This document shows positions 2,645-7,427 of a stretch of 64,000 nt of DNA, piece after piece. The DNA comes from a virus. Taxonomy: Duplodnaviria; Caudoviricetes. The position numbers and the translations under genes are program-made. The stretch is taken from positions 37,804 to 101,803 of the IMG/VR virus record IMGVR_UViG_3300010163_000012, one strand, 5' to 3'. Under the pieces are notes generated by a model. That model was given only the letters and a program-made list of their open reading frames with translations, searched no databases and had not been told where the DNA came from. Numbering within the stretch: position 1 is the first letter of the stretch; every line of letters starts with the position of its first letter.

Positions 2645-3976
2645 ATGGCTAACGCAGAATTATCAGATAAAGAACACATCACACAAAAGCTGGAAAGCAT
2701 ATTTATGACCAGCAAGAAAAGTGTCCATGAATATGTTAGGGAAATCGAGCGCAGATGTCGATTTCAGTCTTCATATCGCCACCTACAGAACGGTACGGTA
2801 TTAGATGATCGTAGCCGTTTGATTGACATATATGATGCCTGCGTACAACAAGACGCTCATCTGCGTGGTGTCATGGAAACACTGTTTTCTCAGATTGTTG
2901 GAGAACGGTTTATGATGGCTAAGCAAAATGAGAAAGGGAAATATACAAAAGACATAGCTGCCACTCGAAAAATCCAAAACACGGAATTTTTGAAAGTGAT
3001 ACATGGTATCGCAGAATCTAAATTGTATGGTTATACTGGGCTGGAATTTTTGGTTGATCCAGAAGTAGAACGTGGTGGGCTTAAAGTCAATTTTGTGGAG
3101 CGTCGTAACATTTTGGCAGACCAACGGAAAATTGTGCAACGTCAAGGTATATGGATGCCACAGTGGAGTTTTGATGACCCTAAATATGCTGATAACTATG
3201 TGCTCATCAACAGTGGGGAGTTGGGGCTATTCTCAGCTGTTGCCCCTTTAATTCTTGCAAAGAAATTCACCTTTGCTAATTATGTCAATTTCTCTCACAC
3301 ATACGGACAGCCTATTATTCATGGCAAAACTGAATCTGAGAATACCGTTGACCGTAAGCGAATGGCAAATGATATAGCGAGTGCTGCTCAAAACAAGGTG
3401 ATTGTTACCGGCCTTAATGATGAGGTTGATATAAAGACATTCACCATGTCGAACTCTGAGCATGTGTTTACCGGGCTTATTGCTATTGTGGATAAAGATG
3501 TCTCCAATCTTATTTTGGGCTCAGAATCAATGGCTGGAGCGACACAATCGTATGTTGGCGCAACGAGAGCACATGAGAATATATTTCGTGACCGTATAGA
3601 GGTCTATCGTGATTACATAGAGCTTGTAATGAACGAGACCGTAATACCTCGCTTAGTTCGGCTTGGCTATCTCCCGGATGGGTTAGAGTTCAAATATGCT
3701 AAACGTATTGAAATGTCTGATGAAGATCGCATACGCCTTTTCCAAAATTTAACGACATCTTGGGAGATGGATCCTGAAACTATTGAACAGGAATTTGGTG
3801 TTAAGGTAAAACGGCAATTAAATGTAGTGCAAGAAGGCGCAGGGGGCATTGGTCCCACAGGTGGCGGAGGTGGCTATAGCCATACTGCAACCCGGCATTT
3901 AACCGATGAAGAGTATTTCCGGAGATACGGCCATGCCCGTGAAACGCAAAATTTTCTTCGGGAGAGAGGGGAGTAG
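2645..3976 (+). CDS. Portal protein (Mu gp29/DUF935-like)
   Basis: 443 aa. LIDIYD....DAHL, SKLYGY..LE, F...YGQP..HGK and ISNLILG-like segments. First gene of the head module, followed by gpF- and gpG-like genes. Confidence 0.85.
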   Translation: MANAELSDKEHITQKLESIFMTSKKSVHEYVREIERRCRFQSSYRHLQNGTVLDDRSRLIDIYDACVQQDAHLRGVMETLFSQIVGERFMMAKQNEKGKYTKDIAATRKIQNTEFLKVIHGIAESKLYGYTGLEFLVDPEVERGGLKVNFVERRNILADQRKIVQRQGIWMPQWSFDDPKYADNYVLINSGELGLFSAVAPLILAKKFTFANYVNFSHTYGQPIIHGKTESENTVDRKRMANDIASAAQNKVIVTGLNDEVDIKTFTMSNSEHVFTGLIAIVDKDVSNLILGSESMAGATQSYVGATRAHENIFRDRIEVYRDYIELVMNETVIPRLVRLGYLPDGLEFKYAKRIEMSDEDRIRLFQNLTTSWEMDPETIEQEFGVKVKRQLNVVQEGAGGIGPTGGGGGYSHTATRHLTDEEYFRRYGHARETQNFLRERGE

Positions 3977-3993
3977 GTCCATCCCCTCTCTCC
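3949..3993 (+). other. Putative -1 programmed ribosomal frameshift signal (portal to gpF-like)
   Basis: A AAT TTT heptamer (3949-3955) in the portal frame, 5-nt spacer, then a perfect 12-bp stem GGAGAGAGGGGA (3961-3972) / TCCCCTCTCTCC (3982-3993). The -1 frame is open 3943-4866. Confidence 0.75.
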
Positions 3994-4866
3994 AATGTAG
4001 TAGCCTTACGGCAACCCGATGATAATAAGGACCAGCACGAAGAGGAAGTAGCAATACTTCTTCCTCTATTCCATGATTTCGTTATTAGCGTTGCCCACCA
4101 TGAAAACGAATGGAATTTATTAGAAGCGTTAATGGAGGCTCGTGCTGATATTGCCATTAGAAGAGCGTGTGCCGGTTTTGGTGTTGATTTCGAGGAAGCA
4201 TTACGTCTCATACGAAACGCCGAAGGTCTTGATAATGAACAGATAGTTCAGCGCAACATCGTTTTATCCGCAGTTGACAATCTTGTTGACTTTGCTGTAG
4301 CAGAAGAATACCAGATGGCTGATGATATGGCAGAGTTAGAAGATTCGCTTACAGAAGAGGAAGCAGAAGAAATGGCAGATGAAGACTGGTCCAATTTTTA
4401 TCTGCCGGTCTTTTCTAAATTCCATGACCTGTATATGCGTACTGAGAACATGGATATAGAATATTCCATGATTATCGCAGCTTATTTGTCAACGATTAAA
4501 GACGACACGACTTTGATGTATATGACGCAAGGTGATGAAAGAGTGCGTCCGTGGCATCTTCAGTATGAAGGGTTCACAGCTCCCAAATCAAGGTTCCCTG
4601 CGTGGCTTATCCCACCAATTGAGCATAATTGTCGTTGCTATTTGGTAGAAGACACTGCAACAGTTATAGCTTCTATGCAAGCGTCCGCAATTCCAGAAAT
4701 GCCAGATTGGTTTAACCGTACATTCAAAGAAAGTGTAGCACTTGGAGGGCGCATTTTCTCTGACGAACACCCATATTTTCAAGTTGATGAGCGGCATGTG
4801 GGCCGTCTCAATGTCATAGCAAAGCGTATCAAAGAAAAATATCTGGAAGACGATGAGGACGAATAG
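3955..4866 (+). CDS. Mu gpF/SPP1 gp7-like minor head protein; first ATG at 4132, but the frame is open from 3943 (probably the frameshift extension of the portal)
   Basis: Y.TQGDERVRPWH and PPIEHNCRC motifs, C-terminal GRIFSDEHPYF. Confidence 0.85.
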   Translation, partial: SSGERGVGPSPLSNVVALRQPDDNKDQHEEEVAILLPLFHDFVISVAHHENEWNLLEALMEARADIAIRRACAGFGVDFEEALRLIRNAEGLDNEQIVQRNIVLSAVDNLVDFAVAEEYQMADDMAELEDSLTEEEAEEMADEDWSNFYLPVFSKFHDLYMRTENMDIEYSMIIAAYLSTIKDDTTLMYMTQGDERVRPWHLQYEGFTAPKSRFPAWLIPPIEHNCRCYLVEDTATVIASMQASAIPEMPDWFNRTFKESVALGGRIFSDEHPYFQVDERHVGRLNVIAKRIKEKYLEDDEDE

Positions 4867-6161: not shown

Positions 6162-7427
6162 ATGGATGCAGAAAATTTGAAATATGTAGTTGGTAAGGCT
6201 GAAGAGGGTCAACCGGCTATCATTCGCTTTTTTTCAGCCGTAGATGAGTATAGTGTTCGTTGCTTCAATGATGAGTTTTTGTGGTTGCAAGACTACGTGA
6301 AGCCTTCAAAGATTATCGTAATGATCAATTCTGAAGGTGGCTCTGTATTGTATGGAATGAGCACATTCTCAGTTATTCGCTCTTGTCCGATTGAAGTTGA
6401 TTGTGTGATAGAGGGAATTGCTGCTTCAATGGCCAGTGTTATTTGGGCCGCTGGCGACAATCTTTACATGCACGATTATTCATTACTGATGATTCACAAT
6501 CCTTTCAACTCGAACGTTGATGATGCCGATCCATCAGTAAAGCAAACCGTTGAAGCGTTCCGTTCACAACTGGAAACCATTTATACTAAACGGTTTGGTC
6601 TTTCCAAAGACAAGGTTGCAGAAATTATGAACGGTGAAGGTGACGCAGATGGCACTTTCTTTAGCGCAAAAGATGCCGTGAAGGCTGGATTTCTCCCGTC
6701 TGAGAATGTCATAAAGACCTCTAAGAAGGTGCGTGACAAAGTAAAAAACGAGATGATAGGTATTGATAACGCTGCCGAAATGCGCAATATCATGTCTGCC
6801 GTGTCTGCTGAAGTGGACGAAAATAAACTTATCGAGGCTATTACTGCTATTCGTAATCAGAAAGATAATTATTCACTAATCCAAGAAAACAAAATGGACA
6901 ACAACGAAAAAAACATTTTCGACGCCATTTCAGCACAACTTGGGCTCGCGAAGGACACTCAGGCCGCAGCGATTGAAGCTCGTATTGCTGAGTTGATCAA
7001 TGCAGAAGCAGCACTCAAGGAAACTAAGAGTGAGCTTACTTCAACGAAGATCAAACTCGAAGGCAAAGAAGCCGCACTCGCTAACATCAACAGCGAACTG
7101 ACCGAGACTAAGGCAAAGCTTCAGGCGTACAAGGATGCAGAGCAAGCTGCTCGCACAGCTGAGATTGAATCCGTTATTGATGACGCAATCAAAGCAGGTA
7201 AAATTGAGGCTTCTGCAAAAGATGCTTGGACGAAGATGGCGGAGTCTGACTTTGCCACTGTCAAGAGCACTCTTGCATCAATCCAGGCTCGTGAAGTAAT
7301 CACAGAGGTAATCGCCGGCGACCCAGCGAATGTTGGCAAAATCGAGGAAACATTGAAAGATGTTGATGCTCAGATGCAAGCCAAAATCAAGGAAAAGCTT
7401 GGTGATGTAGAATTTGAAAAATTTTAA
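6162..7427 (+). CDS. ClpP-type prohead protease fused to a coiled-coil scaffold
   Basis: INSEGGSV, IEGIAASMASVI (catalytic Ser), MIHNP (His), F.A..A...GF. The C-terminal half is an Ala/Glu/Lys coiled coil. Confidence 0.88.
   Translation: MDAENLKYVVGKAEEGQPAIIRFFSAVDEYSVRCFNDEFLWLQDYVKPSKIIVMINSEGGSVLYGMSTFSVIRSCPIEVDCVIEGIAASMASVIWAAGDNLYMHDYSLLMIHNPFNSNVDDADPSVKQTVEAFRSQLETIYTKRFGLSKDKVAEIMNGEGDADGTFFSAKDAVKAGFLPSENVIKTSKKVRDKVKNEMIGIDNAAEMRNIMSAVSAEVDENKLIEAITAIRNQKDNYSLIQENKMDNNEKNIFDAISAQLGLAKDTQAAAIEARIAELINAEAALKETKSELTSTKIKLEGKEAALANINSELTETKAKLQAYKDAEQAARTAEIESVIDDAIKAGKIEASAKDAWTKMAESDFATVKSTLASIQAREVITEVIAGDPANVGKIEETLKDVDAQMQAKIKEKLGDVEFEKF

Follow-up and report, generated by a model that had tools for sequence, protein, structure and literature searches.

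A predicted −1 frameshift joining portal and MuF-like head proteins in phages and prophages of Bacteroidales

The −1 ribosomal frameshifts of Escherichia coli dnaX (tau/gamma) and of the IS911 type use the heptamer A_AAA_AAG together with a downstream stem-loop and an upstream Shine-Dalgarno (SD)-like element. Among phage structural genes, a −1 frameshift produces the tail assembly chaperone pair gpG/gpGT of lambda and its counterparts in most long-tailed phages (Xu, Hendrix, and Duda 2004, as cited in PMC7302621 and PMC7911831). Here, a different pair of genes was examined in a 64,000-nucleotide stretch of a Caudoviricetes genome (positions 37,804 to 101,803 of IMG/VR record IMGVR_UViG_3300010163_000012); this whole stretch is called the window, and coordinates are positions within it unless stated otherwise. 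In the window, a portal gene is followed in the −1 frame by an open reading frame (ORF) for a MuF/gp7-like minor head protein, and an earlier note, made from the letters of the window, had predicted that a programmed −1 ribosomal frameshift (PRF) fuses the two into one polypeptide. The nearest named relative of the window is Bacteroides phage BS-TP1, which has a 111.7-kb genome and is 81% identical over the region.

MuF/gp7 proteins are packaged inside the capsid in few copies by way of the portal, help to start infection, and bear toxin cargo in many prophages (PMC6316719). In SPP1, the MuF family member gp7 is targeted to the procapsid interior, in few copies, by binding the portal protein gp6 (PMC6316719). 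As in SPP1, the MuF-family gene of the window directly follows the portal gene; however, the SPP1 gp6-gp7 link is noncovalent and joins separately translated proteins, whereas the link in the window would be covalent and set by translation. Portal and MuF genes are fused in frame in Microbacterium phages of Clusters EA3/EA5/EA8 and EB (PMC7302621). Like those fusions, and like three in-frame fusions among the relatives described below, the predicted product would hold portal and MuF in one polypeptide, an arrangement compatible with head assembly. The Microbacterium fusions place MuF on every portal subunit, whereas in the window only shifted ribosomes would make the fusion, and portal with and without MuF would be expected. 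The window is not itself an in-frame fusion gene, as two frames are used and the portal stop codon is present at 3974-3976.

The predicted mechanism resembles that of lambda gpG/gpGT in that a conserved X_XXY_YYZ slip near the end of a structural gene would yield, in a fixed ratio, a short product and a C-terminally extended product, with a downstream ORF that has no start of its own. The window nevertheless does not belong with the G/GT tail assembly chaperones, because its genes are portal and MuF and lie in the head module. Unlike lambda, the extension would be a whole virion protein of 300 aa, and a covarying hairpin, whose loop holds the 0-frame stop codon, forms part of the signal. With dnaX and IS911, the window shares a bacterial −1 heptamer slip with a downstream stem-loop as stimulator; it differs in the heptamer itself (A_AAT_TTT), in that no upstream element was noted, and in the hosts, which are Bacteroidales. 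Bacteroidales largely do without SD-led initiation. No published portal-to-MuF frameshift was found in literature searches, which hardly reached subscription journals and are weak evidence in this respect. Neither the BS-TP1 paper nor the Hankyphage paper mentions such an event, and the former reports no proteomic or profiling data. In the prediction made here, a known mechanism, −1 frameshifting, would act on a pair of genes new to it and with a different outcome.

The signal at the portal 3′ end and its predicted product

The elements of the signal and the two genes that it would join are as follows.

2645-3976, + strand: portal gene (0 frame), 443 aa; Mu-type portal, Pfam PF06074 Portal_Mu
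3949-3955, + strand: slippery heptamer A_AAT_TTT, in X_XXY_YYZ phase with portal codons CAA AAT TTT (3947-3955)
3956-3960, + strand: spacer of 5 nt between heptamer and stem
3961-3993, + strand: hairpin with a perfect 12-bp stem (3961-3972/3982-3993) and a 9-nt loop (3973-3981)
3955-4131, + strand: the MuF-like protein's N-terminal tract, start-less and in the −1 frame, predicted to be read only after the slip
4132-4866, + strand: rest of the MuF/gp7-like minor head protein, first ATG to stop, 244 aa; the ORF expected from gene callers

The portal stop codon, TAG (3974-3976), falls inside the hairpin loop. The hairpin has a minimum free energy of −25.6 kcal/mol (z = −3.2), and 1 of 200 shuffled sequences folds as well. 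A TGA at 3940-3942 precedes the −1 frame, which runs open from 3943 through 4866. Within this frame, ATG first occurs at 4132, TTG at 4486, and GTG at 4543, leaving 63 start-free codons from 3943. The earlier note had described the heptamer and its phase, the spacer, the stem, the loop TAG, the open −1 frame with its 63 start-less codons, and a Gly-rich linker in the portal tail, and all of these were found as it had placed them. The heptamer alone is not above chance, as AAATTTT occurs 30 times in the window compared to 36 expected copies; thus, the case rests on its phase, its context, and its conservation among relatives.

From these elements, together with the comparisons presented below, it is very probable that ribosomes undergo a programmed −1 frameshift near the portal gene's 3′ end and so give rise to a 740-aa portal-MuF fusion. 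Most ribosomes would read CAA AAT TTT, melt the hairpin, and terminate at the TAG in the loop, yielding the 443-aa portal protein. A fraction would be held up by the hairpin while tRNA-Asn and tRNA-Phe occupy AAT TTT, slip back one base onto AAA TTT, and proceed in the −1 frame through the start-less tract into the MuF-like ORF. Their product would consist of portal residues 1-437 and 303 MuF residues (740 aa, where the earlier note had predicted a fusion of about that size), joined at ...ETQNF/SSGER. The predicted junction peptide is ETQNFSSGER in the window and NFSSGEGAVGPTPLSNIVALK in BS-TP1. Because the MuF frame contains no ATG, GTG, or TTG for 61 codons after the slip site, the slip is probably the main or only route to a complete MuF protein.

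In solved portals, the C-termini form an inward-facing crown. Given this location, and given that gp7 of SPP1 is brought in via the portal, an extension carrying MuF at the portal C-terminus would be located where MuF is needed. The fusion may co-assemble with plain portal protein into a dodecamer in which MuF faces the capsid interior, the slip rate would then set the MuF copy number, and a prohead protease may later release MuF.

Conservation among relatives

Related loci were gathered from several sources (39 from IMG/VR, 28 from species-representative genomes, 80 from metagenomes, and two from GenBank phage records). In 138 loci, with 66 distinct junctions, AAATTTT is present in portal phase 15 or 18 nt before the portal stop codon, and the MuF frame is at −1. 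These loci come from Bacteroidales phages, prophages, and gut metagenomes, and identity of their MuF proteins to that of the window extends down to 35-36%. Codons at the slip site were tallied for 38 junctions, and 38 of 38 read NNA AAT TTT. The codon preceding AAT TTT was GTA, AAA, GCA, CAA, GGA, TCA, ACA, or GAA, representing eight residues and always ending in A, and neither AAC nor TTC was present at the slip site in any tallied junction. Elsewhere in the same portal genes, AAT makes up 53% of Asn codons, TTT makes up 46% of Phe codons, and A occupies 21% of third positions; from this background usage, the chance of NNA AAT TTT is approximately 0.05 per lineage. Judged by codon usage, the heptamer is conserved beyond what the portal protein sequence requires. 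Depending on the relative, ATG first appears in the MuF frame 8 to 126 codons past the heptamer, and its position is not conserved.

Every heptamer-bearing relative has a hairpin that starts 4 to 7 nt after the heptamer, with the portal stop codon in or adjoining the loop, and the median z score against shuffled sequences across relatives is −2.8. In MT835494, for example, the stem is GGGAGCGGAA/TTCCGCTCCC, with TAG within the loop. The upper stem pairs show compensatory change in RNAalifold (GC, CG, and AU at one pair; GC and AU at the next). In a covariance-model alignment of 42 junctions, 92% of cells were paired and 55 double-change cells were counted in the stem, compared to 16 ± 5 in shuffles; when the partner was slid by 1 to 3 columns, pairing dropped to 45-77%. 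An independent MAFFT alignment pointed in this direction as well. Portal stop codons in the relatives are TAG (19), TAA (11), and TGA (8). No tRNA genes were found in the window. Stop codon reassignment was rejected on these two grounds, all three stops ending the portal in relatives and the window being without a tRNA; the genetic code is standard.

The tract between the slip site and the first ATG was examined for signs of translation. Comparisons with the closer relatives gave pairwise ratios of nonsynonymous to synonymous substitution rates (dN/dS) in the 153-nt tract of 0.07 to 0.15 in the MuF frame versus 0.7 to 2.3 in the other two frames. The pooled ratio of nonsynonymous to synonymous differences (pN/pS) was 0.23 in the 75 nt that directly follow the portal stop codon, 0.24 in the 78 nt beyond them, and 0.23 in 300 nt downstream of ATG 4132. 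Since the tract and the downstream MuF sequence have equal pN/pS, purifying constraint starts directly behind the portal stop codon. Between BS-TP1 and the window, substitutions from the portal stop to 4132 are mostly at the third codon position of the MuF frame, and the ATG at which MuF is annotated in BS-TP1 corresponds to GTT in the window. The tract can also be aligned with the N-terminal sequences of distant relatives in which MuF starts at an ATG of its own. In an AlphaFold2 (AF2) model, residues 1-19 after the slip are disordered; the tract includes helix 27-50 and the beginning of helix 54-77, with a predicted local distance difference test (pLDDT) score of 87-98; Met62, encoded by ATG 4132, falls within a predicted helix. 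By every comparative test run, the start-less tract is translated.

The host assignments of several loci are recorded here as separate observations. For MT835494 (L041) and L064-L068, the junction sequence is identical and is found within 0.4- to 3.9-Mb contigs of Bacteroides, Phocaeicola, and Alistipes species; it looks like a widely shared prophage. The cassette is the same there, the two frames overlap by 193 nt, and the first ATG follows the portal stop codon by 224 nt. Isolate assemblies of Prevotella sp. MGM2, Muribaculaceae, and Palleniella muris contain close relatives (L044, L046, and L051) on contigs of 116 to 144 kb, and coverage of the P. muris contig is approximately 480×. For BS-TP1, no integrated homologues were found (PMC12694917). 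The phages of these three contigs may persist extrachromosomally or as carried infections. L047 and L048 are assigned to Eubacteriales and Eggerthellaceae bins and are probably misbinned phage contigs; every other host is in the Bacteroidales. A metagenome contig, L139 (1.2× coverage), with an odd same-frame layout, was set aside as a probable assembly error.

Natural controls and competing explanations

Some relatives encode MuF in other ways and serve as natural controls. In L028, L029, and L031, the MuF ATG overlaps the portal TGA, the site reads GCT AAT TTC, and there is no stem. The L028 lineage thus keeps Asn-Phe and yet has lost the slippery codons, so that a need for these residues in the protein does not by itself explain the heptamer. 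In L036-L040, MuF has its own ATG in the other frame, and there is no heptamer. Three further proteins, P0003, P0004, and P0005 (729-763 aa), contain portal and MuF in a single ORF. Their genes have the same neighbors (DUF4494 upstream and a ClpP protease downstream), and the two parts are joined by an acidic/lysine linker rather than by a 1-nt change. These in-frame fusions indicate that a fused portal-MuF polypeptide is viable in this family. In a quick tree, the own-start and fused forms are nested within the frameshift-type majority, each at least twice; because the tree came from a quick search with Shimodaira-Hasegawa-like approximate likelihood ratio test (SH-aLRT) support, was midpoint rooted, and has several long branches, how often, and in which direction, lineages changed between frameshift, fusion, and separate genes can be stated only tentatively.

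Conservation of the heptamer, covariation of the stem, and conservation of the start-less −1 frame were the comparisons with relatives on which the earlier note had proposed that its prediction be checked, and each of them, with the heptamer measured against background codon usage and the −1 frame judged as coding sequence, supports the −1 frameshift interpretation. Two observations go further than that note, namely, the loss of the signal in the own-start lineage and the presence of in-frame fusions in the same family. The window and its relatives combine a phased heptamer, a downstream structure after a spacer, an open, coding, and start-less −1 frame, and conservation of the heptamer, which are among the features by which −1 PRF is recognized.

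Two sequences show other possible slip sites at portal-MuF junctions. In the contig that encodes P0003 (L043, positions 2780-2900 of that locus), the repetitive Asp/Glu/Lys linker contains GAC AAA AAG, and the −1 frame reaches a stop about seven codons on; a dnaX-like slip yielding a portal without MuF is conceivable there. In Winogradskyella phage Peternella_1 (MT732475; L042, positions 2463-2610 of that locus), two A_AAA_AAA runs (A10 and A7) stand in phase at the end of a portal-like ORF (1202-2500). The gene after it is annotated as "head morphogenesis protein /portal protein" from a GTG at 2599 and is open in the −1 frame from 2473. This may be a comparable portal-to-MuF slip that uses another heptamer, in a phage of marine Flavobacteriia.

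Several points weigh against the frameshift reading. The shifted product is predicted from sequence, and A_AAT_TTT is not, to our knowledge, among the best-studied efficient bacterial heptamers, such as A_AAA_AAG. The state with an own ATG and no heptamer is limited to five loci in two lineages. In two metagenome contigs, L081 and L105, an ATG overlaps the portal stop codon while A_AAT_TTT and the hairpin are retained; these contigs may stand between the frameshift mode and the separate-gene mode as intermediates. GTG or TTG codons occur within the tract in many relatives, and for those, partial independent initiation is possible. In the hairpin, the six basal pairs (GGAGAG/CUCUCC) are near-invariant and lie in doubly coding sequence, so that only the upper pairs covary, and the covariance-model alignment, being fitted to the structure, somewhat favors that structure.

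One rival explanation is that translation of MuF starts independently within the tract, from a non-AUG or near-cognate codon, or restarts after termination at the portal stop, with the hairpin holding the ribosome and the heptamer kept for the sake of Asn-Phe. Any mechanism that delivers ribosomes to the tract would account for its coding character. The L028-type relatives use stop/start overlap coupling, L081 and L105 have the ATG at the stop, and several relatives have a GTG 4 nt before the end of the portal stop codon. However, the window offers no ATG, GTG, or TTG for 61 codons past the site, and no start position is conserved among relatives. A requirement for Asn-Phe also does not account for the absence of AAC and TTC or for a preceding codon that ends in A across eight residues, and the L028 lineage has Asn-Phe without the slippery codons. 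We therefore consider this explanation improbable. An ordinary two-gene layout would have MuF start at ATG 4132, with 3977-4131 as a noncoding spacer and the hairpin as a terminator, attenuator, or RNA-processing site. Gene callers, and likewise the BS-TP1 GenBank record, place the start of MuF at an internal ATG, and the hairpin is a strong one. We judge such a layout very unlikely, because the supposed spacer has the same pN/pS as MuF and is homologous to N-termini of relatives, ATG 4132 is not conserved (the annotated start of BS-TP1 being GTT in the window), and Met62 is inside a predicted helix. The hairpin was also rejected as an intrinsic terminator, as no U tract lies 3′ of the stem and no terminator was called.

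A further rival is a frame change at the level of RNA, through transcriptional slippage of RNA polymerase along the A/T run, or else an error of assembly in a gene that is truly fused. A4T4 is a short homopolymer pair, T6 occurs in some relatives, and in-frame fusions do exist. Nevertheless, runs of 3 to 4 bases are, as far as we know, far below known slippage lengths, and transcriptional slippage has no need of a phased heptamer or a covarying hairpin. The two-frame layout recurs in 138 independent assemblies, including that of a cultured isolate. The in-frame fusions, moreover, have a quite different linker and not a 1-nt indel, and the probability that we give to either explanation is close to nil.

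Beyond the window, we lean toward a broader claim for the frameshift, although with much less assurance than for the locus itself. It may be a second widely conserved frameshift in phage structural genes besides that of the tail chaperone, such that Bacteroidales phages and prophages of a broad clade make MuF only as a portal extension through a slip on A_AAT_TTT, translation and not binding affinity sets the number of copies at the portal vertex, and the three modes have been switched in the course of evolution.

The joined proteins, their neighborhood, and implications

Two further features of the region concern the portal tail and a neighboring gene.

3836-3874, + strand: Gly-rich linker in the portal C-terminal tail (residues 398-410 by translation)
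6162-7427, + strand: ClpP-like prohead protease with a Mu gpI-like C-terminal part; Pfam PF00574 (E = 5e-19), with PF10123 weak

The portal protein matches PF06074 Portal_Mu with an E value of 9.6e-44 and 150.5 bits (cutoff, 23.9), covering profile positions 2-336 of 336. The assignment of the downstream protein draws on several kinds of evidence. The MuF-like protein of the window scores against Pfam PF04233 with an E value of 1.8e-4 and 22.7 bits, below the cutoff of 29.6; PF04233 matches were obtained for 16 of 18 relatives at E < 0.01, the best with an E value of 3.7e-7, and P0005 bears PF04233 in a precomputed domain table. The AF2 model of the MuF-like protein (pLDDT 81.7) was compared by Foldseek with viral models and matched predicted "phage head morphogenesis domain" proteins with E values of 5e-7 to 2e-5 and TMq of 0.50 to 0.59 over 280 to 305 columns (top match, E = 5e-7 and TMq = 0.57). 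Foldseek found no match to the model in the PDB at E ≤ 0.001, and sequence searches of the PDB with the portal and with the MuF profile gave no match. The motif PPIE-x-x-CRC is invariant in the MuF-like relatives. Based on the PF04233 matches of relatives, the fold match, the position after the portal gene, and this motif, the ORF at 4132-4866 is described as MuF/gp7-like.

The gene order on the + strand is portal, MuF/gp7-like ORF, two small ORFs, and the ClpP-like prohead protease, so that the portal-MuF pair sits in the head module and adjoins the prohead protease, which may be a candidate for cutting the portal-MuF fusion. The Gly-rich linker differs in length in BS-TP1. The portal tail 3′ of this linker (3879-3946) contains the motif TDEEYFRRYGH-x-R, which is common to frameshift-type, own-ATG, and in-frame-fused relatives, with EY-x-(R/K)RYG kept in P0003-P0005. 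This motif could be a docking or cleavage element.

How the number and place of MuF proteins are set is known only for SPP1, where it occurs via protein-protein interaction. If the frameshift is true, it would represent a different solution, in which MuF is tethered covalently to a fraction of the portal subunits. Experimental work is feasible in the cultured relative BS-TP1, which grows on Bacteroides salyersiae (host strain BG8). A true frameshift would also mean that MuF needs reannotation in many gut phage genomes, where the gene is now called from arbitrary internal ATGs with the loss of approximately 60 N-terminal residues, and it would add a conserved recoding site in the Bacteroidales, whose translation signals are poorly studied.

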